IMG/VR virus record: IMGVR_UViG_3300027994_000001
Location: 57,776-121,775 of that record
Length of the DNA stretch: 64,000 bases
Direction: 5' to 3' (one strand)
Source of the DNA: a virus
Lineage: Duplodnaviria; Heunggongvirae; Uroviricota; Caudoviricetes
Part shown: piece by piece, positions 24,267 to 44,342 of the stretch
How the letters are laid out: each line of letters opens with the position of its first letter
Numbering within the stretch: the stretch's first letter is position 1
Position numbers and translations under genes: made by a program
Notes under the pieces: generated by a model
What the model was told of the DNA's origin: nothing
The model's input: only the letters and a program-made list of their open reading frames with translations
Database searches by the model: none

Positions 24267-24299
24267 TTTTCCGCGGAAAAAGATTTAAAAACAAAAAAG
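24267..24299 (-). promoter_or_regulatory. copy of recurrent motif with a downstream Bacteroidota-type -7 box candidate
   Basis: TTTTCCGCGGAAAAAGATTTAAAAACAAAAAAG; on the coding strand a TAAATTTG (TAnnTTTG) lies about 16 nt upstream of the ATG of ORF 23845..24219. Confidence 0.35.
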
Positions 24300-24311
24300 A
24301 CAGATATCTCT
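24282..24311 (-). terminator. candidate intrinsic terminator after the helicase gene
   Basis: Minus-strand read AGACAG-gtagagatat-CTGTCT followed by TTTTTTG; a 6-bp stem plus T-run just 3' of the helicase stop. Confidence 0.35.
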
Positions 24312-24429
24312 ACCTGTCTCTAATAAAATCTCCCCTAACTGCTTTCACTGATAAGACAAGCTTACCTACGGGTCTTTCGGGCACACAGGTTTGGGAGAAA
24401 GCTAATGGAGTGCCTTGTTCACTTTATTA

Positions 24430-25539: not shown

Positions 25540-25552
25540 ATTTTATATTTGA

Positions 25553-26200: not shown

Positions 26201-26201
26201 A

Positions 26202-26546
26202 TTAGCTAAGGATTACACTTATGTTTGGAAACTCTCTACTACACAGCTCTCTAATCTCTTCCATCGTGGCGTAATGCCTGCCATAAATTCTCTTAGAGCC
26301 GCAATAAACAGATAAGAACGGATCAAACCAGACTTCATTTCCTACAATGTCAATACTTTTAAAATCTCCTGTTTCGAATCGAAAGCCCCAATTGTCATAA
26401 TAACCTTCTTTTTGACCACGTGTTTTAAGCAGTAAACCAAAAAATACTCTTTCTTCAACTATTTCATCTTTCCATATATACCCAGACGGACTAGCTGGTG
26501 TAATTTCTATATGTGTTGCTTTTTGTGGATTTATTCTTGTTTCCAT
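26202..26546 (-). CDS. hypothetical protein (start probably at internal Met, not 26651)
   Basis: The long ORF version overlaps the upstream ORF 26549..26875 by 100 nt. An internal ATG at 26546 abuts that ORF's stop in an ATGA-type overlap. Confidence 0.4.
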   Translation of the reverse strand: METRINPQKATHIEITPASPSGYIWKDEIVEERVFFGLLLKTRGQKEGYYDNWGFRFETGDFKSIDIVGNEVWFDPFLSVYCGSKRIYGRHYATMEEIRELCSREFPNISVILS

Positions 26547-26847
26547 ACTTATTCTTCTGTTTTTGGATATAATTCTTTTGCCGAGTATTCTATAATTCCT
26601 GCCTCCGATAGTTCCACTACGATCCACTCTTCTGGAATATTGTTCTGCCATTTATTAATGTAACCCTCTGGTGTGCGTTTATATGTATCACAAAACTGTC
26701 TTAAATGTAATTTTACAGCTTGTTTACTTCCCCATACTTTACCTCTTGAAGTGAAATTTGGATAATGACCGCCTGTAGAAAACTTACCAATGTTATTCTT
26801 TATCTTGATTGCTTTCATAAGGTTCATATTTATTGCATCTAAGTTGT

Positions 26848-28215
26848 TCATAGCTCTTTCTCTAATAGTTTGCAAATATATTTCGATAAATTGGTGACTA
26901 CATTACCTTTTTGTGTTAAATCAATGTATTGTATTATGAACTCGTGAAAGTCAGTTTCTACATTGAAGTCTTCATCTATGATAACACAATTATTAAATCT
27001 ATCCATTATTGATTTTGAACCTTTAAGTTTTGCTCTTTTTACTTCAATGTCTAGGTCGAATTTGTACTTATTTTTTATTTCCGCGGCAAAAGAACTGATA
27101 AGAATCTCTCCTTCTTCATTCTCAACAGCAGGTTCAGCATAAGGCTCTGGTGGACTTTCAACAGTAACATTATCAGAGTAACTCCAGATATGGTCAGCAA
27201 TATTAGAAATTTTACGACCAGCAATTTTGCAATCTTTTCTGATTTTAATTTTCTCCATAATCCAATCATAAGACTTGACATCTCCATGCTTTTCATAAAT
27301 TTCAAAAGCAATATCGTGAACTAGATCCGGTGCAGAACTCCAACAACCCCTATTAGCCAAAAATTCTTTATTTTCACAAGTAAAGTCTTTGGTTATTATT
27401 TCACGAAGAAATTCTTCATTCTTGGTATTCATTATAGCATTACAAATTTCACCTTCAACTTCATACACATTTGATAAAATCCTTCTCTCATCAATTTGCG
27501 CATTCTTCACATTGAAAGCATATCGGCTAGGGACATTCTCATCTTTATAAACTAAGATGTTTTGTTTGTAAATTCTTAAATATTTTTCCTTGTTCCTTAA
27601 TATTTCTACTGAATCTGAAATCTTATAAATTGGCTCTTCTTCATTAATATACAAATGGCGATTATTCCAAATCTCAGCAAATTCTGAGTTTTCTTCAAAT
27701 TCTAATTTAAAAATAGTCCCATAAGAAGCAGACGTACACTCGTCTTCAAAATACTGACCACCTTCATCAGTCATATTAGAAAAAATTTCTCGGAGCAACA
27801 TCCACAAACTCCAGTCTATACCTAACTTAGGACTATACCCTGTCTGAATAATTTCTGGATCATAATCTCCGCCCTCAAGATCTTCACAATGAACGGAAAA
27901 GAAAGATTGTTTTGAAACAGATTTAGTAATTTGAATTAATTCTTTTTCCTTCTCTGTTTGTTCGCATACCTCATTATATGTATCAATAGTGTACAGAGTT
28001 TCACACTGTCTGTCCTCATATTCTCCAAAAGGTTCTGTATGAAATACTTTAACAGACATATCAACATTGTTTCTCAAAGCCAGAGCCATAGAATAGCACA
28101 ATCCAGAGTTGTATTTACCCACGAGAGTTTCATCATCAGCTTTATCAGAACCTCCCATAGAAAATAAATCTAAGTGGGAAAGTAAAGTAGGGGTCTTAAA
28201 ATATATTGCTTTCAT
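26848..28215 (-). CDS. hypothetical protein (455 aa)
   Basis: Long uninterrupted minus-strand ORF in a co-directional array; no recognisable motif. Confidence 0.5.
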   Translation of the reverse strand: MKAIYFKTPTLLSHLDLFSMGGSDKADDETLVGKYNSGLCYSMALALRNNVDMSVKVFHTEPFGEYEDRQCETLYTIDTYNEVCEQTEKEKELIQITKSVSKQSFFSVHCEDLEGGDYDPEIIQTGYSPKLGIDWSLWMLLREIFSNMTDEGGQYFEDECTSASYGTIFKLEFEENSEFAEIWNNRHLYINEEEPIYKISDSVEILRNKEKYLRIYKQNILVYKDENVPSRYAFNVKNAQIDERRILSNVYEVEGEICNAIMNTKNEEFLREIITKDFTCENKEFLANRGCWSSAPDLVHDIAFEIYEKHGDVKSYDWIMEKIKIRKDCKIAGRKISNIADHIWSYSDNVTVESPPEPYAEPAVENEEGEILISSFAAEIKNKYKFDLDIEVKRAKLKGSKSIMDRFNNCVIIDEDFNVETDFHEFIIQYIDLTQKGNVVTNLSKYICKLLEKEL

Positions 28216-28218
28216 AGT

Positions 28219-28238
28219 TTAAATTTAAAACCCTCCTA
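28219..28238 (-). terminator. candidate intrinsic terminator
   Basis: Minus-strand read CCCTC-ttag-GAGGG followed by TTTTAAATTT, directly 3' of ORF 28251..28532. Confidence 0.4.
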
Positions 28239-28543
28239 AGAGGGCTGTGATTAGTCTTGGGCTAAAATCTCTTTCTCGAACTGCTCATAAAGTTTAGCAG
28301 ACTCTTTTAATTCTAAAATCTTAGCAAATAAAACTTCTACTGTTGATTTGTCTAAAGGTGTGTTAGAAGCTAATCTTTCTTCTAGTGCTTCTTCTGCCAC
28401 CTCAATAGAGTCCTCAAGATCTCTCTTAGCTTTCTTAATAAATTTAGCATCTTTTGCAAGTGTATTGCTAATCACTGTTGTTACGTTTTGACCTTCTGTA
28501 AGGTTGCTCTCTAGTAAACTTCTTCTATTCATGGTTTTTGTTT

Positions 28544-28732
28544 TTAAATGGCTCGATAGCCGTTGTTTGTTAATCTAATTTTATTATCGTCAATTAATTC
28601 TCCTATACATCTGATAACGCTGTATCTGGAACAGTTTAGTTTTGTCTTGATGTATTCTGTGTTTATTACTTCTTTTCCGGCGAATAATGCTAGAATCTGT
28701 TCTGCCGTTATTTTATTATATTTGTGTGCCAA
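28544..28732 (-). CDS. small winged-helix/HTH DNA-binding protein
   Basis: 62 aa; SRYSVIRCIGELIDDNKIRL resembles an HTH recognition helix plus wing. Confidence 0.35.
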   Translation of the reverse strand: MAHKYNKITAEQILALFAGKEVINTEYIKTKLNCSRYSVIRCIGELIDDNKIRLTNNGYRAI

Positions 28733-29020
28733 TTTTTAAGGTAATTTACTATAAAGTTCGACTTGATCCCCTATAACATTTACACTGTCTACTCTCTTAA
28801 TTTTAGCTATATAATCTTTCAAAATCCTATTTTCTTTTTCTACTCCATTTTCTACAAATCTTACTTTAGGCTCAGAAATTGCGTGTGATTCGTGCTCTGT
28901 ATATTCATACTCCATTTCAGAAATACTCATAATATCTTTCACTTCTTTAGTTGTTAAAATTCTATCGGATAAAGCTTGTCCTAAACTTTCTTTCCAGTAT
29001 TCAAAATTTTTCATATTTAT

Positions 29021-29052
29021 TTTTTATTTCGCGCAAAAAGATTTAAACAGAA
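29021..29052 (-). promoter_or_regulatory. copy of recurrent motif
   Basis: TTTTATTTCGCGCAAAAAGATTTAAACAGAAG, about 15 nt upstream of the ATG of ORF 28736..29014. Confidence 0.3.
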
Positions 29053-29787
29053 GTTTTTATTCTCCAAATTATAATTCCTAATATAATTATTGTTGTTATT
29101 ACTGTGTAGACAAAAGTCTTGTTTGCTTTTTTCTTCTCTAATTCTGTCATCAATAATAGTAGTTTAGAATTTTAATGGAGTCCGTCTCTTTTTCTCCTTT
29201 ATACATATACTCATAAGTTACAGTTCCAAAGAAACAAGATTCGTATTTTTCAGTTGATCTTTTAAATATTCTTTCACCTTCTTTTCCGTACCACTCATCT
29301 ATTTTTGAAAATAGTCCTTCTAGTGTTTCGTCGGCGAATTCTGGACTTGTGTCGTCTGACCAGTGTGCCAAATATACTTGTTTCATAATTAATTTTTTGT
29401 AAAGTTAATCATATTTTCCGCAAAAACAAATAAAACAGCAATTATTTATTAAACTTTTTTAAAATCCTGCTGACATTCGCCTCCATACCACTACCATCTA
29501 ATTCAAAAGCCATTAACATCTGAGCCATAAATATCTTATTGGGTATATTTCTCACAGCAAAGCTTTTTATTGCATATTCATAATTATCCTGAACTGACAT
29601 CAAAGTCTCAGCATCTAAATTGAAGGCCTTATTGAAATCATCTACAGTGTCTTTTTCTAATTCTATTATAAGCGATTTAATGAGATTTACTTTTTTGTGC
29701 CGGAATAAAGACGTTCGTTTAAATGCTTCCAGGTTTTCTATAAGGAGCTGTTGTTGAATTATTATATCTAGGCTTAATATGGTGTTT

Positions 29788-30153
29788 TTATCCATGTATT
29801 ATTATTTCTTCCATTGTATTTAATTTTGAAGCTACTACTATACAGCCTGTTTCCTCAAATTCTTTTATTGCTTTTCCAACAGCCCCTCTTGGTATATTCA
29901 ACATTCTGCTTACTTTGTTTACCCCGCCGAACTTCAAATAAAACTCTATAATAGCTATCTTCCTAACATGATTTTCAGTTTTTTTAGCTTCTGGAAAGAT
30001 AACAGGTTTATAATTTATAAGTTCTTTTATCTGTTTTTTACTAAAGGTTATGTTAACCCCTTTAAACTTTCCTTCTAATCTTAAAACATGTGCTCGGCGG
30101 TATAAAGCAGAAACGGGGATGTTATATTTAACTGAAATTTCTTTGTACGTCAT
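29788..30153 (-). CDS. HTH-domain protein (two helix-turn-helix-like segments)
   Basis: MTYKEISVKYNIPVSALYRRA and VNKVSRMLNIPRGAVGKAIKEF both resemble HTH DNA-binding motifs. Confidence 0.4.
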   Translation of the reverse strand: MTYKEISVKYNIPVSALYRRAHVLRLEGKFKGVNITFSKKQIKELINYKPVIFPEAKKTENHVRKIAIIEFYLKFGGVNKVSRMLNIPRGAVGKAIKEFEETGCIVVASKLNTMEEIIIHG

Positions 30154-31523
30154 TTGGATGTTCTTTTTCTAATGTACTCTCCAATGCATATGCATAACGA
30201 TATTTACTATCTTTATATTTCTCTGCTATTGTGTGCTCCTCTTTTCCGAACTTCCTAAAGCTGTATGGTGGATTAAACTCCATAGCAATTAATAATGTTG
30301 TAGGCGTGTATCCACAGACAAAACCAAAGACTCCTCCATAAGTTACCTTCTTGTCTGCCCATTTATCATATAGTATTTTCATTTTGGCTTGTATTAATTA
30401 AACTGCATGAACTCTTTGTTCAAACGTTCTAAAAGTTCTGTATTATAATCCACTTTTGCAATCAATTCCTCTAAAGTTTTTGATTCGTTTTGTGTGGTAT
30501 CTACAAAGTGTTTTAAGGCACTGCCTACACGTGGATAATAGTAAGGTTCAGTGTATAGAAATTCTTCCTGCTCTTCTGTCTTTTTATTTTTTCTTTCGCG
30601 AATTTCTGAGAAAATTAAAATAACGCCATTATCTGAATCCGGCTCTAAGTGCCACTCGTTGTTTAACTCTATCTTACTACTTTTGCTGAATATATTGTTC
30701 ATATTATTTATTTTTATAAGTATCCAAAAGCAATTGCTGCTGTTTCACCAATGTCACATAAATTACCATTGTCTTCATCAAAGTCACAGTCATTCTCTGC
30801 ATCATAAGTCGGCTCATCATAATATTTACCAATCTCCTCATCAAGTGCATTCCACTTATCTGTTATTCTCTGTAAGTAATTTAATTTCTCTATTACTTCT
30901 GTTGTAGTTAATACTACTCCGTCTTTAAGCACGAGTGCCCCATCTTGTGTGTACATGTTTATTGTTGTTTTAAGTTTATTTTCCGGCGAAAAAGAAGTAA
31001 CATACAGAGACTATTATAAGAAAAACAATAATGAAACCTACAAAACTGAAATCATCATCTCCATCTCCGCCTGTAGGGTTAGAAGTAATTTCGTAATAGT
31101 AAATAGGGTCATTTTCTTTTAACCACCTCATGTAATTTTCTTTACAGTCATTTGGATTATGTTCATCTAATTCTTGCATAACTATTCTGTATAAGTTAAT
31201 TTAATTCCAGTAAAAATTTCTGTATACCAAGCATCATGCGGATCTCCTCCTGGTTCTGCATGTGTTTCAGTTATTTCTCTGATTTCAACTTCTTTTGCGG
31301 AAATTCCAAGCTTTTCGGATAATATCTCTTTTAAGTCATCTATAGTGAATACAGCTTCTACTGTTATTGTTGTTTTGATTTCCATTTTTCGCGCAATAAA
31401 ATTAATAAATAAAAAATAGTAGCTTACCTACCAGCACAAGTCCTACGTTCTTACTTGATTACGAGTGAACCTGTAGTGCCACCAAATCCGCCGTTTTATT
31501 TTCTTCCTTTCGGCTTGGAATTC

Positions 31524-32465
31524 TTATTTCAAATTAACTAAAGTTCCATTTGCTCCCCCAACAACTGTATTTGAAAGTTTTCCATCCCAACGTTGAGCTT
31601 TCATGTACTCAATATAAATAGGAGATAGTTTCTTTTGTTTAATCTCTAAAGATAATGCTTCCGCCGAGGCTTTAATTACAACTGTTGCTGAATCTCCTTT
31701 TGCTATTGCTATCTTTCTTTGTGCATCTGCTGTTGCTGCCTTAGCTTGTGACTCAGAGGTAATTGCATCTTGAACGGCTTTTGCTTTGGCATTAATTGAA
31801 CTTACAATAGATCCAGGCGGTTGAATATTTGTTTTCAACTGAGAAATAAAAAACCATTTACCAACTCTTTTATTGGCTTCAACTACAATAGCCGCTTCAA
31901 ACTGCTGACGGTTGTTAAAAATATCATCTATTACAAACCTATTAGCTACATCATTAACTGCTCCTAGAATTGCTGTTTGTAACCATCCTTGTTCAATTGC
32001 TTCTAGACCACCTCTTTTAAATGTTGACCTTAGATTGGTAAACATATCCGCAGCGGCATGTTCTTTTACAGAATAATTAAATGTTGGATGAATATCGCAG
32101 GGAAAACCTCCCTTAGCAATAATAGTAGATTTAGGGTAAACAATGTTTCTTTGGTCTAAAGCAACTTCATGTAATTCCTGCGTATAAGAATTAAATAAAA
32201 CTAATCCTGATACTTCTTTAATAGCCGAAGCTCCACGAGTATCTCCAATTAGATTAACGGCTAATCCTTTGTAACCCGCTTCCACTTTCTTTAAAGAATA
32301 AGGTTGTAATAAAATAAGTAGAAGAAATACCACTGCTGCAACTACAGGTTTGTAGTGGAATTTTAGATTTCCATCTGGAAGAGTCTCTATTAAAGTTAAT
32401 TTTTTCTGAGCAAATAAAGCTCCAAATACTACTACGAAAATAATTAGTAAAATTGTTGTTACCAT
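31524..32465 (-). CDS. SPFH/band-7 (prohibitin/HflK-C-like) membrane protein
   Basis: N-terminal transmembrane helix followed by a band-7 core and a Lys/Ala-rich coiled-coil tail (AKAKAVQDAITSESQAKAATADAQRKIAIAKGD). Confidence 0.7.
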   Translation of the reverse strand: MVTTILLIIFVVVFGALFAQKKLTLIETLPDGNLKFHYKPVVAAVVFLLLILLQPYSLKKVEAGYKGLAVNLIGDTRGASAIKEVSGLVLFNSYTQELHEVALDQRNIVYPKSTIIAKGGFPCDIHPTFNYSVKEHAAADMFTNLRSTFKRGGLEAIEQGWLQTAILGAVNDVANRFVIDDIFNNRQQFEAAIVVEANKRVGKWFFISQLKTNIQPPGSIVSSINAKAKAVQDAITSESQAKAATADAQRKIAIAKGDSATVVIKASAEALSLEIKQKKLSPIYIEYMKAQRWDGKLSNTVVGGANGTLVNLK

Positions 32466-32784
32466 GTCTAATTTTTATGTTTATAATTTATTACTGCAAA
32501 CCTACAACCTTTATTTCACTTACGCAAGGAAAATCCAAAAAATTTCGCCGGAAAAAGAAAATTAATCAGGAATCTCCATCCACCTCACAACATCACCAAG
32601 CTCATACTCATCATTACTAGTATACCAATCATTAAAATCTGATCCATCTATAAATCCTGAATACAAAACAGCTACATAATAATCATTGTGCTCATCTTGG
32701 ACTAATACTTCATCGCTTTTCTTTCCGTCCCAATACCCTTCTTTATATGTTATTGGGAGTTCTTTGTCTGTATATTTCCACATG

Positions 32785-33492
32785 TTATTTTGCGAAGTAT
32801 TTATTGTAAACCGTTACATATTCACTAATTTCTTCTACTACTCTTGTAACTTTATCCAAAGCGTATTTCACTCTTTCCTCGGTATATTGTAAGGGTATAT
32901 AAAATTGCTCTGTTGATAAGTTCAAAGGCGGTTTGATATGTGATCCAGTTCTTCGACAAAACCACACACCCATTTCATTAATTGTATAACCTTCTAAAAC
33001 CAAGGCATAACAGTATAATAACAATTGTATGTAACTTTCCTTAGTATATTCAGCCTCTTTTTTAGCTCCCCCTGTCTTTATATCTTTCGAATTACATACG
33101 TTATCACCTAGATCTTCAAAAATATCTATAAAACCAATGACAACGAATTCTCCCATATCAATAAGGATCATCCTTTCATAAACAGTATTTTCACGTCTAG
33201 GAATTAGACTTATATTTTCCCCACCCGTAAATCCATGAGCATTAGGCTGTACTTCATTCAATTCTACTGTAGTTCCTACCCAAGAACCAAAATTTGCATA
33301 TACAGATTCTGGTAACTTAATACCTGCTAATTTCTGTTTAATAAAATCTGTTCTGTAATCTTCCCAAGAGGAGACAGTAGAATAACTGATATAAAATTTA
33401 CCTAAATGTGGTTCAATTAATTTTTCATTGCCTTCATAGAACCAATTGTCCTTACTTAATTTCGAGGGTAAATTTATTTTTACTTTTGTCAT
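32785..33492 (-). CDS. PD-(D/E)XK nuclease, RecB/Cas4-like
   Basis: GFIDIFED...DIKTGG (D...D/E-x-K) followed by the QxxxY motif as YIQLLLYCYAL. Confidence 0.55.
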   Translation of the reverse strand: MTKVKINLPSKLSKDNWFYEGNEKLIEPHLGKFYISYSTVSSWEDYRTDFIKQKLAGIKLPESVYANFGSWVGTTVELNEVQPNAHGFTGGENISLIPRRENTVYERMILIDMGEFVVIGFIDIFEDLGDNVCNSKDIKTGGAKKEAEYTKESYIQLLLYCYALVLEGYTINEMGVWFCRRTGSHIKPPLNLSTEQFYIPLQYTEERVKYALDKVTRVVEEISEYVTVYNKYFAK

Positions 33493-34431
33493 TTATATTG
33501 TTGCTAAAAATGTGTCTACTTCTTTTGTTTTTTTCTCTATTGTGGCTTTTGAATCTTGCTGATTATTGATGAAGTCATTTAAAATGTATACTCCTAAAAT
33601 CATTTCTCTAACAATCTCTCTATCACGTTTAGTTAATTTCTTCTTTTTCAACTGCTCTTCTAAGCCTGCTCTTATTTCCAAAGTCATTGCTTGTGATTTG
33701 TATAACTCTTGTAAAAAATTAACTGGTTTTACTGGCTCTACATCTTTAACTTTCTGTTCTACTAAGAGAGTCTTTAAAGGTGTTAACTCGAAAAGTTTTC
33801 TATGTGTTTGTGACAGCACCTCTATCTTTTTTATCGCCGAAATCTTCAAAGCCTCAAAATTCTCAGAATTATAGTAAGTAAACTCGTCTTCATAGGGAAT
33901 TATTCCCTCTTTATCTATATTTAGAATACTTGCAATTTCTTCTAATGAAAAAGAATAACGCCCTGCCCCCTTATAATATTGTTTCAGATCAAATCCAGAC
34001 AAATTCCAACTTTTTAAACCCTTGTACTTTAAGTCTGGGTGTGGAGGATTCAAATGACTGTTAGCATCTAATCTCACTCCAATATAAGGTAATACAATTT
34101 CGGCATCAAAATGGACTAGGTTATATTCTTGAAACTGTGTTTTAACCAGATTAACAAAATTCTGTAGTAAATCCACTTCTGTTCCTATAATATATTTAAC
34201 TCTGAGTTCACCATTGTGCTCAAAACCAATGATAATTGATGTTATAGCGGAAAAAAGAGGATTGCGCCATGCATTTAATCTAAACTTATCTTCTAATTCT
34301 TCATCCTCATACAATTCTCTCTGTTGATAATCCTTTTTGTATTTATTTTGAAACAATTGCAGCTCTTTGTCTGTAGGTACGACTGTTTGACTTGATTGGT
34401 AACTCCAATATAATACTTTTTTACTTTCCAT
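33493..34431 (-). CDS. hypothetical protein, possibly degenerate RNase-H-fold / PolB-exonuclease-like
   Basis: Weak Exo II-like NLVHFDAEIVLPY; no clear Exo I. Located between the PD-(D/E)XK and DnaQ-like nucleases. Confidence 0.3.
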   Translation of the reverse strand: MESKKVLYWSYQSSQTVVPTDKELQLFQNKYKKDYQQRELYEDEELEDKFRLNAWRNPLFSAITSIIIGFEHNGELRVKYIIGTEVDLLQNFVNLVKTQFQEYNLVHFDAEIVLPYIGVRLDANSHLNPPHPDLKYKGLKSWNLSGFDLKQYYKGAGRYSFSLEEIASILNIDKEGIIPYEDEFTYYNSENFEALKISAIKKIEVLSQTHRKLFELTPLKTLLVEQKVKDVEPVKPVNFLQELYKSQAMTLEIRAGLEEQLKKKKLTKRDREIVREMILGVYILNDFINNQQDSKATIEKKTKEVDTFLATI

Positions 34432-34434
34432 AAT

Positions 34435-35199
34435 TTATTCTTTTCCTAATAATTGTTTAATTTTAATTTTTGTTTCCGCAGGGAAGTCCTTACCGAGCAT
34501 CCAGTTGGCAAATCCAGGATTATCAACTACTGAGAGGTTTACATCCTTTCCAAAGCCATACCTGATAATCCTATCTTTATCTACATACAGACTTCCGTTA
34601 AGATCAAATCTTCTTTGCTCTCCTTGTAAATATTCGTCTATATCTTTTATAGTTTCAATTGGTGTTTCAGATTGTTGAATTAACACAGGTAATAAAATAT
34701 CCGCAATTTCCTTTGTGGCTTTTATATCAAAGACAGCACCATGCGCTCCCTCTAATTCTTTTCCTGTCAGTCTTTTATAAACATCCGATAAAGTATTAGG
34801 AAATAGTTTTCTATATAATTTTAAAATATCATATAAATTAGGATTCCACGTAATTCCTTCCAAACCTGCACGCTCGAATTCTGCTGATAAAAGTGGTACA
34901 TCATATTTATCTGAATTGAATCCCGCTAGATCACACCCACCAAACCATTTTCTAATAGCTTGGGCGTATTGTTTAAATACAGGTAAATCTTTCACCATGT
35001 CATCTGTTATTCCATGAACTTCCGAAGCTTCAACAGGAATTGGTATTTCTGGATTTACCAAAATTGTTTTTTCCTCTTGTGTGCCATCAGGATTATACTT
35101 TATACATGCTAATTCAATGATTCTTGCTGTCTGTGTTTCTACAGACGTGCTTTCAATATCAAAAAATATAATAGGTTTTTCTAATTTCATAATCTCCAC
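34435..35199 (-). CDS. DnaQ-like (DEDDh) 3'-5' exonuclease
   Basis: Exo I FFDIESTS, Exo II AGFNSDKYDVPLL, Exo III AHGAVFDIKAT. Confidence 0.8.
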   Translation of the reverse strand: MEIMKLEKPIIFFDIESTSVETQTARIIELACIKYNPDGTQEEKTILVNPEIPIPVEASEVHGITDDMVKDLPVFKQYAQAIRKWFGGCDLAGFNSDKYDVPLLSAEFERAGLEGITWNPNLYDILKLYRKLFPNTLSDVYKRLTGKELEGAHGAVFDIKATKEIADILLPVLIQQSETPIETIKDIDEYLQGEQRRFDLNGSLYVDKDRIIRYGFGKDVNLSVVDNPGFANWMLGKDFPAETKIKIKQLLGKE

Positions 35200-35269
35200 T
35201 TTATTTTAACTTGTTCTTGAATTCTTAAACACGTCTGGGTATAACTCCAGAGCCTCTTTTAAATCGTTT

Positions 35270-35632
35270 TCATTTTTCCACAGAAGGCGAGCAGGAACGA
35301 AGGAATGACACGAGGTAAAAGAACACAGAGAACAAACGGAACTCGTCCATATAGAACCAAGTATAATATTTTCTTTCATTCGTGTTTTTAAAGTTTGGAA
35401 TCCACCCTTTATTGTAAAATGCAGCCAACATAGCTTCTTGTTCATAATATTTTACATGTAAAGGGATATTTTTATAGAGTTCATCAAAATCCTTTTCTGT
35501 GGTTTTATGGTACTCGAGTACTTTTTGGAAGCTATTATAAACCTCTCTAAATACAATTCTATCGAAAGTAGATCTTTCTTTATCTATTTCAAATCCTTTT
35601 GGAACTTCAATTTTCAATTCTTGTGTTTTCAT
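35270..35632 (-). CDS. small protein carrying a second, degenerate DGR variable-repeat copy at its C-terminus (candidate secondary or decayed target)
   Basis: C-terminal FRLFSVFFYLVSFLRSCSPSVEK is encoded by VR2. The pre-VR segment KYYTWFYMDEFRL is paralogous to KYFPWWYLGKNFRL in the primary target. Confidence 0.5.
   Translation of the reverse strand: MKTQELKIEVPKGFEIDKERSTFDRIVFREVYNSFQKVLEYHKTTEKDFDELYKNIPLHVKYYEQEAMLAAFYNKGWIPNFKNTNERKYYTWFYMDEFRLFSVFFYLVSFLRSCSPSVEK
35279..35341 (-). repeat. VR2: VR-like repeat diverged from the TR at adenines and carrying two 1-nt insertions
   Basis: Hand-aligned to TR 36662..36722: about 20 substitutions, all at coding-strand TR adenines, plus two single-base insertions. 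It shares the GC-enriched 3' block CTCGCC(T)TCTGTG with VR1. Confidence 0.6.
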
Positions 35633-36584
35633 TTTCGTATTTATTTACTAAGTTTTTACTATTACAGTGGACTAACCAACTCTTATGATTTTTCTTTACT
35701 TTATTTTTAATATATTTTTTCTTAATTGACTTTCTTATCAGAGTATGTGTATGATAATGTTTATATCCCAAAAAATCAATGCTCCGTGCACTTACTGGAA
35801 AAACTTGATAATTTCCTTTTATTTCCAACTTTAGTTGTGTTCTCAGATAGTCTTGGATATTATAAAACCACTCCCATAATTGTTCTTTATTATCTGAAAG
35901 TAAAACCATATCATCACAATATTTGAAATAATATTTTACTTTTAAAACCTCCTTAATCCAATGATCAAAATATGTCAGATAGAAATTTCCAAAAAATTGA
36001 CTTGTGAAATTACCTAATGGAACTCCACTGTGAGAATCTATAATATCGTCTAATAAATATAGCAAATCATTATCTTTAAACTTTCGCCGTAACATTCCTT
36101 TTAATATCTCATTATCTATGTTAGGGAAAAATTTCTTAATGTCTAGTTTAAGGCAGTATTTTGTCCCCTCTGTGTCTTTCAATACCTTTCTTAATTTATA
36201 AGAAGCTTGGTGCACACCTCTTCCCTTCACACAACTATATGTATCAGCGGTAAAAACAGATACAAAAATAGGCTCTAAAATATTTAGTATGGCGTGGTGT
36301 ACAATTCGATCAGGATAGTAAGGCAATTGTGATATTGTTCTTTCTTTTCCATCGGATATTGTAAATACATTATATCTAGACGTTGTAAATTTTTTATCAC
36401 TTAAAGTTTTGTGTAAATTTAAAATATTATCTTCTTCATTCTGTAAATGTTTTATTACTCCGTATTGTTTTAATTTCCCTCTTCTTGCTTTCTTATCTGC
36501 TGACTGTAAGTTTTCAATGTTGATTATTTGCTGGTATAAATTATTGTGTCTTTTCATGCTCTGTGTATATAAACTCACTTTCAA
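35607..36584 (-). CDS. diversity-generating retroelement reverse transcriptase
   Basis: RT motifs LDIKKFFPNID, GVPLGNFTSQFFGNFYL (the DGR-specific [I/L]GxxxSQ in place of the retroviral QGxxxSP), YFKYCDDMVLL (YxDD) and IDFLGYK. About 325 aa, adjacent to a TR/VR pair. Confidence 0.85.
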   Translation of the reverse strand: MKVSLYTQSMKRHNNLYQQIINIENLQSADKKARRGKLKQYGVIKHLQNEEDNILNLHKTLSDKKFTTSRYNVFTISDGKERTISQLPYYPDRIVHHAILNILEPIFVSVFTADTYSCVKGRGVHQASYKLRKVLKDTEGTKYCLKLDIKKFFPNIDNEILKGMLRRKFKDNDLLYLLDDIIDSHSGVPLGNFTSQFFGNFYLTYFDHWIKEVLKVKYYFKYCDDMVLLSDNKEQLWEWFYNIQDYLRTQLKLEIKGNYQVFPVSARSIDFLGYKHYHTHTLIRKSIKKKYIKNKVKKNHKSWLVHCNSKNLVNKYENENTRIEN

Positions 36585-36661
36585 TTACTTTACTAACGAG
36601 TCTTTAAGGCTTTTATTTATTTTTTACCGAGAGGTAAAGTGTTTTTACTTATTTTAAAATC

Positions 36662-36722
36662 TACAGATGTGAGTAGGAACGTTGGAATTATTCGAGTTAT
36701 AGTTCACATTGTTCAAACGGAA
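36662..36722 (-). repeat. DGR template repeat (TR), 61 bp, intergenic between target stop and RT start
   Basis: Coding-strand read TTCCGTTTGAACAATGTGAACTATAACTCGAATAATTCCAACGTTCCTACTCACATCTGTA is rich in AAC/AAT codons. It matches VR1 at 47 of 61 positions; every mismatch is at a TR adenine. Confidence 0.8.
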
Positions 36723-36740
36723 GGGGTAAAAACACTTGTT

Positions 36741-37304
36741 TTAATTCATATAATCTTTCCAAATATCTTTAAACTGAGATGCTGAGTAATTTCCTAATTC
36801 GGAAGATTTGACACAGAGGCGAGAAGGAACGCAGGAACAATCCGAGTAATAGTTCACAGCGCCCAAACGGAAATTCTTACCTAAATACCACCAAGGAAAA
36901 TACTTATATTCGCTGTGATTATCCCAATCAAGTTCAATCCCATTATTTAGAGCCTTAGAAATAACTACAAGTTCTTGGCAAGCTACTACTTTTCTTTCTA
37001 AATTTGGTGTGTTTTTTAACAGCCTTAATTGAAGAACTTCATTATCTATCTCTCCCAACTGTTTACATGCATCCTCAACTGTCTTTATATCCTCCCAAGT
37101 GTCACGTACATCAAAAATCTCTTTAACAATGGGTAACTGCTCCGCTGTACAAGCTGTAATCATCTCGTTAATTTGTTTTTCTGTGAATTTTATTTCCGCG
37201 GAAAATGGATCTTCTGAGCCGAAAGCTTTTATTTTCTTCTTCCAAGAATCACAGGCAATATCGTGTATCTGTTTTAACTCTTCTCTGGTTATACTATTTT
37301 TCAT
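36741..37304 (-). CDS. DGR target protein (187 aa) with variable repeat near its C-terminus
   Basis: VR1 encodes FRLGAVNYYSDCSCVPSRLC, against the TR-encoded FRLNNVNYNSNNSNVPTHIC. The ORF stop lies 19 nt upstream of the TR on the coding strand. Confidence 0.75.
   Translation of the reverse strand: MKNSITREELKQIHDIACDSWKKKIKAFGSEDPFSAEIKFTEKQINEMITACTAEQLPIVKEIFDVRDTWEDIKTVEDACKQLGEIDNEVLQLRLLKNTPNLERKVVACQELVVISKALNNGIELDWDNHSEYKYFPWWYLGKNFRLGAVNYYSDCSCVPSRLCVKSSELGNYSASQFKDIWKDYMN
36812..36872 (-). repeat. DGR variable repeat VR1
   Basis: Ungapped 61-bp alignment to the TR at an offset of +150. 14 mismatches at + coordinates 36812, 18, 20, 24, 32, 33, 38, 39, 42, 48, 59, 60, 62 and 63, all opposite TR T on the + strand (A on the coding strand). 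Confidence 0.8.
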
Positions 37305-37306
37305 AA

Positions 37307-38086
37307 TTATTTATTTAAAATCATTTCTTTAATATCCTGAACATGCTTACTTCCCCATTTTTGCAGAGCGTATCTAGCTTTGGCTTCAATAATTGAAATC
37401 AATGGAACAATTTTATAAGTAAAGCCTTTATACTCCAATAGTTCGTATTTCTGGTTAGGATCGATTCTTACATCAGCTTTAACGCCGTCAATATAGATGC
37501 TTTCATTATAGTCCGAACTTGAAAATCTATCTTCACCGCTTTCAATATCTAATCCATCAGCCTTAAGAATTTGGTAAAACGGTAGAATAAAATCATAATC
37601 CGCTTCTCCGTCTCTGAATCTTTCAAGTCTCACACCTTGTAAATATAAACTGATACTGCCACCTACTATAAGATTAGGATTGCTTTCCTGAAGAGTTTTT
37701 ACAGTTGATAAGTGCATAGCTTCGTCTAGTCTTTCAGATTCTTTGGCTTTTCTAATCTCTTTTAATTCTTTTTCGCCGATTTCTTCTAAAAATTTAATAC
37801 ATCTTGTGGTGTTTTTATGAGTGTCTTCTTTAAATTCACCTAAAATTTCTATTTTAAAAAATCTATTTGAACCATTATTACTGTAATGGTTAAACACTTC
37901 ATCAAGCTCATTCCAATAACTTATAGCTTTACTTGAATCTAATTCTAACTTAGATTTGATTACGTTATATCCTTCTGGTAATTCTTGCGTTTCTCCCTTA
38001 TCGTCAATGTAGTAAGTTTTACCTATTTCAAACTGCACTTTATTGAGCTGCATGTTATTATCTGTTCCTTTAAATCCTAATTTCAT
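37307..38086 (-). CDS. hypothetical protein (259 aa) immediately upstream of the DGR target
   Basis: Long minus-strand ORF with its stop 2 nt from the target's ATG; no recognisable motif. Confidence 0.45.
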   Translation of the reverse strand: MKLGFKGTDNNMQLNKVQFEIGKTYYIDDKGETQELPEGYNVIKSKLELDSSKAISYWNELDEVFNHYSNNGSNRFFKIEILGEFKEDTHKNTTRCIKFLEEIGEKELKEIRKAKESERLDEAMHLSTVKTLQESNPNLIVGGSISLYLQGVRLERFRDGEADYDFILPFYQILKADGLDIESGEDRFSSSDYNESIYIDGVKADVRIDPNQKYELLEYKGFTYKIVPLISIIEAKARYALQKWGSKHVQDIKEMILNK

Positions 38087-38285
38087 ATAATAATGTATTT
38101 AATGTTTTCTTCTGTTTCTTTTACTTCTCCCTGCTCCAGAATCTGTTGTGCTGTTTCTGGATGTATTTCGTGGATTAACGCAATTGTTACGCCCATATAT
38201 ATGACCTTCATAAGTTTGTTTTTGAATCTCTTTCCCGCAAATGTAAGTTATATATTTTAATCTCGCAATAGTTTTTGTAAAAATA

Positions 38286-39209
38286 TTAAAAATTTCCATA
38301 TTCAACCTGAAAAACTTTCAATCCGAGTGCCCTAGCTCTTCTACAAACGGAATTTCTATCGTCTATTAAGGTAAGAATGTAGTTATTTTTCGCTATTTCT
38401 TCCCACAATTCCATTTTTACTATATCATCTGACCTAAAATCTCCTGATTTTCTCATATATAAGGTTATTTCAACATCTTCAAGATCTAATTCTAGATTAT
38501 CTCTTAACCATTTTTCTGTTTCTTCTCTACAACCCTCATCTCGACCCGAACAGAAAATTAATTCTGGCTGGTCTAAAGTCATATACAAATGTGCAAAAAG
38601 CTCTGCTACAGGAAAATCCAGTTTATCTTCTGAGACTTTTTTCCAGTCAAAAGGGCTTCTATTTCCCATATGTGCGAGTGTCCCATCAATGTCAAAAACG
38701 TAGCAAGCTGGTTTTTCTATGTCATTCTCAAATACAATAGGTTCAAAATCTTTTACAGGAATACCTTGTCTTTGCAGTTCCATATATTGATTGTGCTGTC
38801 TTTTTATTACTTCTGCTCCAACACTTCTGTTTCTTTTTGAATCTCTTTCTATTGCTTTTTCCGGCGAAATATCAAAATATTTGTAGCTTATTGGCACATT
38901 CCAATACTGAAACCTATCAAGGAACTCTTTCTTAAGGTGTGTGGCATCCACTAATACAGTTTTATTTTCTGCTAATCCTTCGTGAATTAAAACATCTTCA
39001 TACTTTGTTACCTGTTTTTCTAACTTAGAGATGTCTGGTCTGGAATAGTATTCTTTAATTGACTCTTCTGAGAAAGAAAACATCAATTCTCTGATTTTGT
39101 CCCGATTTACTACCAATACCCCTGTTGGATTTGCTCTCCATTGTTCGTGTGCATACGTCGATTTACCGCTGCCGGATATTCCCACTAAAACTTCTATCTT
39201 TTTACTCAT
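38286..39209 (-). CDS. pnk: polynucleotide 5'-kinase/3'-phosphatase (T4 Pnk-like)
   Basis: N-terminal P-loop GISGSGKST; C-terminal HAD phosphatase motif VFDIDGTLAH (DxDGT) and downstream acidic HAD blocks. Confidence 0.8.
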   Translation of the reverse strand: MSKKIEVLVGISGSGKSTYAHEQWRANPTGVLVVNRDKIRELMFSFSEESIKEYYSRPDISKLEKQVTKYEDVLIHEGLAENKTVLVDATHLKKEFLDRFQYWNVPISYKYFDISPEKAIERDSKRNRSVGAEVIKRQHNQYMELQRQGIPVKDFEPIVFENDIEKPACYVFDIDGTLAHMGNRSPFDWKKVSEDKLDFPVAELFAHLYMTLDQPELIFCSGRDEGCREETEKWLRDNLELDLEDVEITLYMRKSGDFRSDDIVKMELWEEIAKNNYILTLIDDRNSVCRRARALGLKVFQVEYGNF

Positions 39210-39879
39210 AATGAAATTGTCTTGTGTTATTTGCTTGAAGCATTATATTTAATAAATCATCATCTGTTTCTTGGATATAATAATTCTCCAATAAGTGATT
39301 CTGATACATGTCGGAGGCTTTTTGTCTTAGATAACCTTCCATTTCTATGCAATACTTTTTATCCTTTAAATTCAAAGCTATTTTCTGTATTTCTTCTTTT
39401 TTCGGCAAAATATTATCAATCAAACACTCCGCAATATAAAGGCTTCTATTAGCGTGAAATAATTTGTTTTTATTGTTATGTAGTTTTAAATCCCGTTTTG
39501 CAACTCCGCAATATGCTCGAATGAGCTTAAAAGTTCTGCATGTCTTCAAAACTTGCTCTCCAATCCTCTCATTTCCCCCAGTAAACAGTAAAATATCAGA
39601 ATGAATTGTACCATCACCACTCTTTAAATTAGCCCAAAACTGTTCTTCTGAAACCCAAATATATTGAGAGTTGTTTTCTAAGTCATCATATTGAAAACTA
39701 TGAATACTCGGTAAGCCGTTGACCTTTTCTTTAAAAACACTATCGTAATTATATACTCTCATATAATCATAGTCACTGTCTTCCTTGTTTGTACCGAAAA
39801 GCCTTGATCCAAATTCATATTCAATGTATCTGGATTTATTAAGCCGTTCGTGTTGTTCTTTTGTTATTTTTATGTTCAT
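39202..39879 (-). CDS. Pol-beta-superfamily nucleotidyltransferase-domain protein (paralog 1)
   Basis: FGSRLFGTNKEDSDYDYM fits the NTase signature hG[GS]x9-13Dh[DE]h. Confidence 0.5.
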   Translation of the reverse strand: MNIKITKEQHERLNKSRYIEYEFGSRLFGTNKEDSDYDYMRVYNYDSVFKEKVNGLPSIHSFQYDDLENNSQYIWVSEEQFWANLKSGDGTIHSDILLFTGGNERIGEQVLKTCRTFKLIRAYCGVAKRDLKLHNNKNKLFHANRSLYIAECLIDNILPKKEEIQKIALNLKDKKYCIEMEGYLRQKASDMYQNHLLENYYIQETDDDLLNIMLQANNTRQFHYE

Positions 39880-40541
39880 ATCAATAATTTTAGTTCCTCT
39901 AATAAGTCAGTGTTAAAACAGTTGTGTTTTTCAAGAATTTCTTTTATACTTCTTAACTTTTCTGTTTGTTTTTCTATCGGGTTTAGCTTTTTAAACTCCG
40001 TGGCCTTACTATTAAACAAAGTCCTATACTTATCATTTATTTTATCCCACAATTCTTGCCTGTCATGATAAGCTGATAATTTATATAAGTCTCTTAGCAG
40101 CCAATTCATATTTGAATAATCAAGTATCTTACCTTCTCTCATAATTTGAATTGCAAAATCTAATATCCTAATAGAATGAAATATAGATTTAAGTGCAATA
40201 TCTAAGTCATAATCTCCGATAACAATAAGTTTCTTTTTTCCTTTAACCCAACTATTTGATGTTAACATTGATATATTTCGTCTAAAGGATTCTTTATTTA
40301 TATCAACTGTTGGGAATTCCCACTTATAAACTTCAAAGGTACTCTTATCTGCAAAATAAACTTCTAAACAAGCAATATCTCCGTTTTTAACAGCCGTTAT
40401 AAAAGATTCTTTAGTAAAACAGTGAATATTTACATCTTCTATTTTTTCTAGTTCGTCTTGTATCACAATATAATCATGATCAGATTTTTCTGAATGGCTT
40501 CCGTACAGTCTACTACCAAATAAGCATTTGTTTAAAATCAT
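39876..40541 (-). CDS. Pol-beta-superfamily nucleotidyltransferase-domain protein (paralog 2)
   Basis: FGSRLYGSHSEKSDHDYIV is the same signature; similar length and a 4-nt overlap with paralog 1. Confidence 0.5.
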   Translation of the reverse strand: MILNKCLFGSRLYGSHSEKSDHDYIVIQDELEKIEDVNIHCFTKESFITAVKNGDIACLEVYFADKSTFEVYKWEFPTVDINKESFRRNISMLTSNSWVKGKKKLIVIGDYDLDIALKSIFHSIRILDFAIQIMREGKILDYSNMNWLLRDLYKLSAYHDRQELWDKINDKYRTLFNSKATEFKKLNPIEKQTEKLRSIKEILEKHNCFNTDLLEELKLLI

Positions 40542-41530
40542 AATCTTTCAAATTTAGGTTTAATAGCCTTCCAAATTACTTGGGAATAGTCTTTATCATT
40601 ATACATATTGAATAAAATTCCTGACAAAGAGTACTTTAAAGCATCTAAAGCAAACTGTTTTTTATCTGTTGTATTAATTATTTTAAATACATATTTATAT
40701 TGGGCTTCTATTAAAAGATACTCTGACCACAACTTTTCAACAAATTCATCGACTTTATTATAAAATTCATCTGGAACTCCTTCTAAAATACTCATGATAT
40801 CATCACCGTTCTTTAAACATTCCCAAACAGAGGTTGTAGATACAGCTGTCATAATTCTGTGCAATCTCAAATACTCGTCACCTTTTATTTTACATCTTTC
40901 TCCATTATAAAACCTTACAACATATCCTTCTTCTGTTTCTTTTATTTCTTTGTTTAATTCTTTTAGTGGCGTTTTTGAATCAAAATTTTTTACTTTGTTA
41001 GGAAAATGAACCTCTTCTAAACTTTTTTCCACACCGGACTCAGTTTCAAATACTCCTGTTAAAATAACTCCTTCAAACTCCCCATAATCACATACAATTC
41101 TGTTGTTTTTATAGATTATCTCAAAACAATATGTATACTCTTTACTGAATTCACTGTAATCAGAAATAGCTTCTAAAAATTCTCTACCTTTAAGAGCTTG
41201 ATCAGATGTAAATGAACCGCGGGAAGCAAAAACCCAAGAATCATCATAATAGAATAAAATACCTAATGAACCATCAAGCTTCTCGTAAATATCATATTTA
41301 TCACATATATTAGTCTTACCCTCTGATAGATTAAAAAACTTCTTGAAAGGCTTAGCTACTACATTTCCTTTATCATCTGTTACAAGTCCTCTGCACATCA
41401 TTATGATATCGTTCCACAAGCTTTCATATTGAACTTTATCTGAATAGTTCCATATAAGTAATGGGAGTGTTGGGTGCTTCTGTTTGAAAACTAAACCTTT
41501 TTTTTCGTATTTTAACAGTATGTCTAACAT
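40538..41530 (-). CDS. ATP-dependent RNA ligase, Rnl1-like
   Basis: Nucleotidyltransferase motif I KxDG present as YEKLDGSLGILFY, resembling T4 Rnl1 KEDGSL; about 330 aa, adjacent to the pnk block. Confidence 0.65.
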   Translation of the reverse strand: MLDILLKYEKKGLVFKQKHPTLPLLIWNYSDKVQYESLWNDIIMMCRGLVTDDKGNVVAKPFKKFFNLSEGKTNICDKYDIYEKLDGSLGILFYYDDSWVFASRGSFTSDQALKGREFLEAISDYSEFSKEYTYCFEIIYKNNRIVCDYGEFEGVILTGVFETESGVEKSLEEVHFPNKVKNFDSKTPLKELNKEIKETEEGYVVRFYNGERCKIKGDEYLRLHRIMTAVSTTSVWECLKNGDDIMSILEGVPDEFYNKVDEFVEKLWSEYLLIEAQYKYVFKIINTTDKKQFALDALKYSLSGILFNMYNDKDYSQVIWKAIKPKFERL

Positions 41531-43784
41531 AATCTAAAATAAATCACCGCCATTTAACAAATCCCCTATAATTCCGCCTTCTAAAGAACCGCCAAGAAGT
41601 CCTCCTAATAAAGCTGAATCTGTTGCATATCCTATAACTCCCGACAAAAGTAAATCTGTTGTATTGTCTTTACTGCTTTCTGAAACTTCTACTTTTACAT
41701 AATCTAATTGATCTGAGTAAGATAGTGCCTTATAAGTTTCTTTTCTTAGCATTACACCTGTATTTTTATTTTGATATACTTTCATAAGCTTGTCCGTATT
41801 TAATTAATGTTTTTAAAAAATTTATTCCTTCTTCCTTTGTGTTGTACTGCCAATAACAATCATTGAGAATTAGATCATACTGCTCTTTTGTCAATAAACC
41901 TTTTTCTAAGCAGTCTGTTAATGCATTACCTATGTATTGTTCATCTGTGCTTTCGTATTCTGCTAAGAGAATTTTGTATAGTTTTTTCATTATATTTTTA
42001 CCAGCTCACTTTTACAACATAATCTCCTTCTTCAATAAATCCATCCTCATATAATACCTGAAATATGTGACTTATTGAGTGATTGCCATATTCACCATTT
42101 CTTATGTCTTCTGCCTCTGTACCAAAAAACACTGTCATATTTGGAGCTTTGAAATCATAAGATGAATAGTTATTAGCCTCGTGTTGTGCTACGAATTCTA
42201 AATCTCCTCCGTATTTCGATTGTACAAAGTCATCAAAATCAAAACTATCAATTGTAAATATTGTTTGTTTTTTAAAAATGCTACTCGTTTTCATAATTAC
42301 AGTTTGATTGATTAAATATCTCCTTGAAAATCGGCAGGATTAATGCCTTGTTGTTCTAAAATTTCGAAACCAGTAATAGTATCTTTTACTTTATCCCAAT
42401 ACCTAGTCGTTGAATTCCAAGTGTATTCCTTGCTTTTATCGCCGGAAGAATAAAAATCTAAAGCTCTTAATGCTCCGTTACCTATTCCTGCGTTATTCAT
42501 TGCCGATGCAATATCTATTCCTGTTACTATTTGTGTATCTCCTGTAAGCCAGAAGAGTGTGAAGTTTAGTGTGTTCATGTTATAGTTTATATATTTTAAT
42601 TGCTCTTAGAAACACTTGTATTGATTTATCTGTTTCTGTTAGTTTTACTCTGTTTTCTTTTTGTATCTGGATGTGTTTTGAAAGATTTTCCTCTGTTTTT
42701 AATCTTTTTTCCGGCGAATTCTGCTTGTATTGAGAAATTGAATCTTTTATTAGCTGTTTCTGAATCATATTATTTACAATTTTCACAACAAGTTTTACCA
42801 TTTTCCCAATAAAGTTCGCTACTTCTAACTATCTCTCCACAATTTGAGCACATTTCAACGTTCTTCCCTGCTTCATAATCAGTGTAGTCATACTTATAAT
42901 CGTCTGCAAAATGTCCCATAATTATCCTCTTATTATTTCTATAATGTCTGTTTCTGAATTCGATGCTCTTAAAGTCTTCCCTGCGTGGGTACGACTTCCA
43001 ACTTTAGTTTTTGCTTCATCGTACCAAACTAAATGGTCGAAGTAATCTGATTCTGGCAGAGGTTCTTTGTAATACATTATTGAACCATCTCTGGCGATAA
43101 GTTTATCGTTTTTTACACAACTTCTAAGGTCTACTGAGTCGGGTGATTCTACCCACTCTAAATCAAATACTTTTCTTGTGTATTCATCTATATTAAATTC
43201 TTCTTTCATGATACTATAGTTTTAATTAAAAAATCTCGATAAGGTTTATTTGTCTCCCCTAGTATATACCAAAGTTTCTCATTTAATGTAAGGAAAGGGT
43301 ATTTGTTTAGAAGCAGTTTGTATTTTTTCTTCTTTTTCCGCGGAATTCTAGTATAATTGTAAAACGGACTAAGCTGTTTTGGTGCTATGAAATTATCCAT
43401 TACTTTTGATATCCTCTATAATTAAACAGCCTGAACAAATGTCTGTGATAGATTTCCAATAATCAGATAAACTCCCTGACCCTGTTGAAACTCTTTTTCT
43501 CTCGCCTTCTGGAAACTCGATATTAAATGTCCAAAATTGAGCAGGAGCACCTTCAACCCAAATTTCAATTTTACAGCCAAAAAATAATATTTCCCCTACT
43601 CTTATTGAAGTCCAATTAGGTATATCTTTAAACTTATTTAATCCTAGTTCTATGAACAATTCTTGATCTCCGTAATATGTGCTGAATGTCGTCATATTTT
43701 TTAGTTTTTATCTTTTTAGCGGCAAAAGTAGAAACGATCACACCTCCGTTATTATTTCGGGAGCACCATGTTTTGCCATTGTTA

Positions 43785-44342
43785 TTACCTGCCGTATCCA
43801 AAAGCCACACTAATTGTCTGTGGGTTAAATTTGAATGTTGTCGTTATAAAATTCTTCTTTATTTTGATAAAATACTTTAGTCCTGCGTCTATGTGTGTTA
43901 CCCTTGCTTCTGAAACTTTACTGTTGTTTATGAAAGTTAAGTTTTGATAGTTTGTTACTCCTGATAGTAAATACAGTTGTTTTAACCAGCATGTTTTACA
44001 GATGCTTACTCCAAAGTTTAAACTTACTGCTCTTGTTTCTGTTTTTAAAGTTTTTTCTCCGCCGAAATTTAAATTTTCTGTTTCACAATTACAATCCGCT
44101 GTTATGGGAGTATCTGTTTTATAAATCCTATTTCCTGACATATAATTAGAATGCTCCGCCCCCAATAATAAATCATTTAAATATTCTCTATTCTGATCAG
44201 TTTTTATAATGAAATTTAAACCAATCAAATAACCTGTGTTTTTATCCTCACTCAATACAGAGCCGGTATAAAGCTCATAATTCTGGCTGTATACCGATCC
44301 TGTAATAAGAAGAGCTAATAAAAGCTTTTTCATTAGTTGCAA
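43785..44342 (-). CDS. outer-membrane beta-barrel-type protein with signal peptide
   Basis: N-terminal MQLMKKLLLALLITGSVYSQ signal; alternating hydrophobic/Tyr-rich pattern typical of small OMP beta-barrels; C-terminal FGYGR. Confidence 0.45.
   Translation of the reverse strand: MQLMKKLLLALLITGSVYSQNYELYTGSVLSEDKNTGYLIGLNFIIKTDQNREYLNDLLLGAEHSNYMSGNRIYKTDTPITADCNCETENLNFGGEKTLKTETRAVSLNFGVSICKTCWLKQLYLLSGVTNYQNLTFINNSKVSEARVTHIDAGLKYFIKIKKNFITTTFKFNPQTISVAFGYGR

Follow-up and report, generated by a model that had tools for sequence, protein, structure and literature searches.

The stretch of DNA analyzed here (the window; 64,000 nucleotides (nt), positions 57,776 to 121,775 of IMG/VR record IMGVR_UViG_3300027994_000001, a virus of the Caudoviricetes) carries a diversity-generating retroelement (DGR) with one template repeat (TR), one reverse transcriptase (RT) and two paralogous target genes that flank the RT. 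Both targets contain a variable repeat (VR), and the one in target gene 2 (VR2) has one base more than the TR, which splits the gene. We consider it probable that the second target of a conserved two-target phage DGR is present here as an allele with a recent frameshift, located in the replication module of a phage of approximately 140 kb. All genes in the DGR part of the window lie on the minus strand, and the order of transcription is target 1, TR, RT, target 2, exonuclease. The locus is composed of the following features:

36741..37304, minus strand: target gene 1, an intact gene of 187 amino acids (aa) that carries VR1 close to the 3' end; paralogous to target gene 2 and matched by phrog_11581, a family of unknown function
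36812..36872, minus strand: VR1, within target gene 1, with A-specific differences to the TR
36662..36722, minus strand: TR, non-coding, between target gene 1 and the RT
36623..36638, minus strand: hairpin TTTACC-TCTC-GGTAAA in the spacer between TR and RT, presumed to be part of the DGR RNA
35607..36584, minus strand: DGR-type RT, intact, with the motifs LGNFTSQ and YCDD
35206..35632, minus strand: target gene 2 in the extent of its orthologues, 141 aa after removal of one base, here split by a +1 frameshift
35270..35632, minus strand: annotated open reading frame (ORF) of target 2, 120 aa
35284..35341, minus strand: VR2 proper, 58 nt, corresponding to the 57-nt TR core and one extra base
35314..35320, minus strand: interval that holds the single extra base, opposite AAC-TAT-AAC of the TR
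35279..35283, minus strand: flank of VR2, CTGTG, part of the Leu-Trp codons CTG TGG; orthologues have the same in-frame codons past the end of their TR homology
34435..35199, minus strand: RNase T-type exonuclease (Pfam RNase_T, E = 3.6e-22), context of the DGR and not part of it

The RT matches Pfam RVT_1 (E = 1.5e-16) and is 37% identical to Brt of Bordetella phage BPP-1 (E = 2e-56). In this alignment LGNFTSQ pairs with IGSLTSQ and YCDD with YMDD, corresponding to the (I/L)GxxxSQ motif and the Y-x-DD catalytic box of the DGR clade. Its best match in the Protein Data Bank (PDB) is 8ub7_A, a reverse transcriptase of 328 aa (2.5e-48), with group II intron and retron RTs at about 1e-12; a literature search for the PDB code 8UB7 gave no match. 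The 3' end of the RT gene and the start of target 2 overlap by 26 nt (35607..35632), as they do in the contigs L081, L082, and L084, which suggests translational coupling of target 2 to the RT. No ORF is found in the interval between target 1 and the TR. The spacer between TR and RT (36585..36661) is A-rich around the hairpin. This hairpin is nearly invariant in seven related loci where the RT identity is only about 60–86%, and the stem in L082 has one compensatory change from C-G to G-C. By analogy with the Bordetella spacer that is needed for priming, the hairpin is probably part of the DGR RNA; an Rfam gathering scan of the whole window gave no match.

On the coding strand, the core of the TR is TTCCGTTTGAACAATGTGAACTATAACTCGAATAATTCCAACGTTCCTACTCACATC. 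When read in the frame of VR1 it is a run of AAC and AAT codons (F R L N N V N Y N S N N S N V P T H I C). VR1 aligns to the 57-nt core without a gap and differs from it at 13 of the 18 A positions and at none of the 39 other positions (Fisher p = 3.5e-9).

The initial annotation had described a third copy of this repeat at the 3' end of ORF 35270..35632, on the far side of the RT, and our analysis confirms it. We searched the whole window with a pattern consisting of the non-A bases of the TR and one variable gap, and obtained exactly three matches (35285-35341, 36667-36722, and 36817-36872), against 0 in 100 shuffles that served as a control. The 3' half of the pattern alone found the same three sites, even when three mismatches were allowed. 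VR2 retains all 38 non-A positions of the pattern, with 0 matches expected by chance; its similarity to the TR is thus far above chance. In an alignment with one gap over the 57-nt core, 16 of the 18 A positions differ and only one of the 39 non-A positions does (a terminal C>T; Fisher p = 4e-11). Without a gap there are 34 mismatches, 17 of them at non-A positions, so that the alignment truly needs a gap. Both the 5' end of VR2 (TTCCGTTTG) and its 3' block CTCGCC are intact. The paralogy that the initial annotation had noted between the segments preceding the two VRs is borne out by the target proteins (37% identity over 62 aa, E = 6e-8). We conclude that 35284..35341 on the minus strand is a genuine second target site of the phage DGR, damaged with respect to the TR. 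At the sequence level, the locus fits the definition of a DGR, as it combines an RT of the DGR clade, an A-specific TR/VR pair, a VR in the 3' part of the target and a non-coding TR beside the RT.

The VRs can be told apart from the TR by a short block resembling the initiation of mutagenic homing (IMH) element. This block is CTCGCCTC in VR1 (36816..36823) and CTCGCCTT in VR2 (35284..35291). At the same place the TR carries CTCACATC, where VR1 and VR2 have CTCGCCT(C/T); the 3' block CTCGCC common to both VRs is thus CTCACA in the TR. All VRs of all relatives show CGCCT(C) opposite CACATC of their TR, except that the TR of L002 and L006 reads CACTTC, including one non-A difference. The pair of CGCC in the VRs and CACA in the TR looks like an IMH/IMH* pair that would mark the VRs as recipients.

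The boundaries of VR2 and the number of indels differ from those in the initial annotation, which placed the repeat at 35279-35341 with two 1-nt insertions, about 20 differences to the TR, and a fixed 3' block CTCGCC.TCTGTG common with VR1. With those two gaps, over 61 nt, we count 17 differences, and they do all fall at adenines (17 of 19 A positions, 0 of 42 non-A positions). Only one of the insertions is real. All equally good placements of a single gap lie at VR2 indices 21–24 and 26–27, corresponding to 35314..35320, and the extra base is either a T of the coding-strand TTTT run (35317..35320) or a C of CC (35314..35315). The length difference adjoins an AAC of the TR, the gap lying within AAC-TAT-AAC, and the register shift of 1 was also found independently in a screen of related loci (see below). 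The 3' insertion, CTCGCC-T-TCTGTG, was rejected, as TCTGTG aligns to TCTGTA of the TR at an offset of one base by overrunning into the conserved Leu-Trp flank. An indel-free VR2 is present in related phages: the homology between VR2 and TR is gap-free in L001, L082, L084, L086, L002, and L006, where it ends in ...CGCCT(C/T/G) and is followed by flank codons (CTG TGG, GTG TGG, or TGT TAT). In L082, for instance, the segment is GCG CGC CTC CTG TGG AAA, compared to GCT CGC CTT CTG TGG AAA in the window, and ARLLWKNE is the commonest form of the VR2-end segment in the target 2 family (7 homologues). Since intact orthologues carry the same flank codons, the 3' insertion is an artefact of alignment and not an event in this phage. 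The true VR2 is therefore 35284..35341, whereas 35279..35283 is flank, and the proposed 3' block belongs to the repeat only as far as CGCCT(T), the CTGTG after it being conserved flank. The offset at the 3' edge could conceivably echo an ancient, compensated indel. More generally, a gapped TR/VR alignment can overrun the true boundary of a VR and invent indels.

The extra base shifts the reading frame after ...FRLFSVFF, and the annotated product ends in ...YLVSFLRSCSPSVEK at 120 aa. The conserved tail, VPARLLWKNENDLKEALELYPDVFKNSRTS followed by a stop codon, is open in the +1 frame down to 35206. When one base is removed from GTGTTC-TTTT-ACC, the result is a 141-aa protein that is colinear with the orthologues L001/P0011 and P0003, and 28 of the 30 residues of the tail in the +1 frame match the last 30 residues of P0003. 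A protein search with the 120-aa ORF found 24 homologues besides itself, consisting of two fragments and 22 full-length proteins of 134–157 aa (21 of them 134–143 aa); compared with these 22, truncation is seen in the copy of the window alone. In L001, the closest relative, target 2 is intact, with 141 aa, and ends in ...FRLNDVDFSSFNSRVPARLCYKNKKDLLEAIELYPDVFKESREF. In an AlphaFold model of P0003 (predicted local distance difference test score of 90), the VR is located on the second strand of a β-hairpin (residues 99–106) and on the loop that follows, and two confident helices are predicted at residues 121–139. As the shifted product would lose these two C-terminal helices, the target 2 allele of the window is most likely non-functional. 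No recognizable C-type lectin or Ig fold was found for the target scaffold.

Several observations bear on the age of the frameshift. Not one of the 38 internal non-A positions of VR2 has changed with respect to the TR. The tail frame is open over 30 codons and differs from the L083 orthologue by 9 synonymous and 2 non-synonymous codons. When the first 97 codons were compared among the window, L083, and L082, the lineage of the window has about 14 non-synonymous and 15.5 synonymous changes, compared to 11 and 9.5 for L083 and 11 and 14.5 for L082, with no sign of relaxed selection on the N-terminal part of target 2. The TR, the RT, and target 1 are intact. Taken together with the intact ends of VR2, the frameshift looks recent and appears to have occurred in an otherwise live target rather than in a long-abandoned one.

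The frameshifted sequence is not limited to a single contig. The same 120-aa product, target 1 and exonuclease occur on four contigs from JGI, ENA, and Logan assemblies, and an identical RT on three. Neither VR differs among the four contigs of this phage, one of which (L081) matches the window at 100% over 6,363 nt. This recurrence speaks against a one-off error of assembly. In IMG/VR and in JGI metagenome contigs, exact DNA patterns from the flanks of VR2 found no match, so that no VR2 variants of the same phage were recovered.

The arrangement target 1, TR, RT, target 2, exonuclease is kept in related phages of approximately 140 kb (130–148 kb where full contigs are known). A single target on each side of the RT is found in the window and in L001, L002, L006, L082, L084, and L086, that is, only in this clade of ~140-kb phages, and the exonuclease neighbor downstream of target 2 is present in all relatives. 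The RT of L001 (IMG/VR) is 86% identical to that of the window, and those of L002 and L006 are 63% identical. In most other members of the RT clade, the paralogous targets, two or three of them, stand in tandem on the upstream side of the RT. The initial annotation took targets on both sides of the RT as a record of DGR turnover. Conservation of the two-sided layout with a gap-free VR2 in at least six related contigs contradicts this and points to a stable two-target design.

One of these related phages was recovered repeatedly: four Logan contigs (L086, L087, L088, and L089, from SRR28413661, SRR25375777, SRR28413679, and SRR25375768) are 100% identical over 4–5 kb, including both VRs, and the exact target 2 protein of this phage is present on 24 contigs. 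Either there was no consensus-level turnover of the VRs across samples or the contigs derive from one shared clonal stock; being 100% identical, they are uninformative on VR turnover.

Frameshifted VRs are rare in this DGR family. We screened 142 distinct VRs from 74 related loci for register shifts with respect to their own TR and found small shifts in three: VR2 of the window (+1), the proximal VR of L023 (-2), and a VR of L008 (+3, in frame). In L023 (IMGVR_UViG_2582581873_000001, 3646..3718) a 2-nt deletion opposite GAT-AAC of the TR splits the proximal target into two frames, and in L008 (2812..2891) the insertion lies opposite TCTAA-TGATG. All three shifts are opposite A-rich positions of the TR. 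Frameshifted VRs are therefore rare (about 1–2%) but recurrent, which fits occasional errors of mutagenic retrohoming.

These data are best explained by a DGR in which one TR and one DGR-type RT would serve two small paralogous targets, one on each side of the RT. The cDNA made from the TR, with adenines misread, would replace both VR1 and VR2. VR2 has the full A-to-N signature together with one extra base at 35314..35320, and the frame shifts inside the VR. The extra base was probably written in a recent round of retrohoming, by slippage of the RT on the A-rich template; replication slippage in the newly created run of four T residues would be a less likely source. Neither the TR nor the RT nor either end of VR2 is damaged, so that the defect could be overwritten in a later round of retrohoming. 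Some points weigh against this explanation. Slippage of the RT is a step that we infer, and the finding that all three indels in the family lie beside TR adenines is weak evidence for it, only suggestive because about a third of the TR is A. Both the extra base and the diversification of VR2 were judged from assembled consensus contigs alone, and the four contigs may stem from one population or sample series. The fold of the targets is not recognizably that of a C-type lectin or Ig domain. Finally, a requirement for an accessory protein is left unexplained, as no Avd homologue was found in the window: Pfam gave no Avd-type match for 16 ORFs within ~10 kb of the DGR, and a phmmer search with BPP-1 Avd against all ORFs of the window of at least 60 aa had a best E of 0.28, a search of limited sensitivity that leaves ~75 kb of the genome outside the window. 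Avd is frequent, but not universal, among catalogued DGRs.

The extra base could be an error of sequencing or assembly, in which case target 2 would really be intact and a consensus artefact in a 4-nt homopolymer or in CC, perhaps through read heterogeneity in the hypervariable region, would account for the shift. The position of the base in a short homopolymer, the finding that no other copy among 24 homologues is truncated, and the perfectly kept downstream frame are all in agreement with such an error. We nevertheless regard it as improbable, since three assembly sources gave the same sequence on four contigs, Illumina-type data are not prone to errors in a 4-nt run, and another VR of this DGR family, that of L023, is independently frameshifted. 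A regulatory role for the same base also seems unlikely, though somewhat conceivable: the RT would write and erase the +1, so that retrohoming, besides varying the binding surface of target 2, acts as an on/off switch between null and functional states of this accessory target while target 1 stays on. If this were true, the frameshifted VR of L023 would be another instance of the switch. It is harder still to see the frameshift as functional by itself, either through a programmed +1 ribosomal shift on C-TTT-TAC or because the recoded, shortened C-terminus is a useful extreme variant. The tail frame is kept, the TTTT run would allow tRNA-Phe in the P site to pair again after moving downstream by one base, and noncanonical mutagenesis has been raised as a possible capability of DGRs, with frameshifts that may add diversity (Wu et al., 2018; PMC5758913). 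Yet the run is followed by neither a slow codon nor a stop codon, no stimulatory element can be discerned, and the predicted fold loses two confident C-terminal helices. The run itself arose by A-to-T changes in a hypervariable segment and is absent from all orthologues, so it cannot be a conserved signal; we consider a functional frameshift highly improbable.

The initial annotation read VR2 as a former target that has decayed, or as one whose cognate TR has been lost, with target turnover around the RT, for the reason that active targets do not normally tolerate indels. That premise is outdated: of the 372 DGRs surveyed by Wu et al. (2018, NAR 46:11; PMC5758913), 7% have a TR and a VR of unequal length. 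An indel relative to the TR and a shortened ORF would be expected of an old, decayed target, and both are seen here. Against this stand the lack of drift at the 38 internal non-A positions, the open tail with its signature of purifying selection, and the lack of a non-synonymous excess on the lineage of the window. A lost second TR is not needed, since the resident TR accounts for every base of VR2 but the extra one; a TR with one more base would, moreover, break its own register of AAY codons. The two-sided layout, with one TR for both VRs, is found in at least six relatives. Decay or loss of a TR is thus very unlikely, and a recent frameshift in a live second target is the reading that we retain.

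For the annotation, the consequence is a corrected gene model: target 2 is 35206..35632 with a +1 frameshift, and not a 120-aa ORF. The locus is also a further clear case of a VR indel facing AAC codons, a class already known, and its orthologues show the intact gene. VR indels and two-target DGRs have both been documented before, which makes the frameshifted VR2 an ordinary case, of little importance beyond annotation. More may be gained from the wider context than from the frameshift, as there is a large uncharacterized family of small DGR targets, with no recognizable fold, among replication genes; these could be DGR-diversified binders other than tail fibers.

The DGR sits in a module for replication and nucleotide metabolism (3812..45271 of the window) whose members, identified with Pfam and PHROGs, include exonucleases and the following genes:

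15035-17146: DNA polymerase
24430-25539: DnaB-like helicase
38286-39209: PNKP
40538-41530: RNA ligase

No tail genes adjoin the DGR; such a location is unusual for the targets of a phage DGR and hints at a role other than receptor binding. The minus strand carries approximately 139 of the 143 gene-like ORFs of the window, and small ORFs of 60–150 aa are in the majority. A family was matched by 15 of the 26 window ORFs scanned against Pfam or PHROGs, and megablast of 34400-37400 against INPHARED phages gave no match.

When compared with the DGR of BPP-1 (mtd VR1 - avd - TR - brt), the locus shares a homologous RT, a non-coding TR just upstream of the RT, a VR at the 3' end of the target ORF, adenine-specific differences between TR and VR, and a fixed 3' non-identical block that resembles IMH/IMH*. 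In contrast to BPP-1, no avd gene was detected in the window, and the TR and VR are about 57 nt rather than 134 nt. There are two paralogous targets flanking the RT, one of them downstream of it, and these are proteins of 141–187 aa of unknown function in a replication module rather than a tail-fiber tip, without a detectable C-type lectin fold.

Noncanonical indels similar to that of VR2 have been described by Wu et al. (2018; PMC5758913). In that survey, 11 of 25 DGRs with a length difference were frameshifting, 74% of the indels were beside AAC, and the indels were ascribed to slippage of the RT on AAC repeats; where a DGR had more than one target, the indel often concerned just one of them. 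The frameshift in the window is alike in its position beside AAC and in affecting only one of the targets. Unlike those cases, no second change within the VR offsets the shift, and a conserved C-terminal tail is lost, so that the outcome looks like a null allele and not like added diversity.

Two targets in a cassette are found in 13% of DGRs (PMC5758913), and gut phage DGRs with two targets are also known (PMC10743442). As in these multi-target phage DGRs, one TR and one RT in the window serve two VR-bearing genes. In contrast to the tentaclin phages, in which the two targets have different topologies and both have recognizable C-type lectin domains, the two targets in the window belong as paralogues to one small family and lie on either side of the RT. 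Tandem-target DGRs from IMG/VR (L010, L013, and L046, for instance) share the RT clade (55–63% identity), the small target family and the length class of the TR, but all of their two or three targets are arrayed in tandem upstream of the RT, unlike the one target per side in the window.
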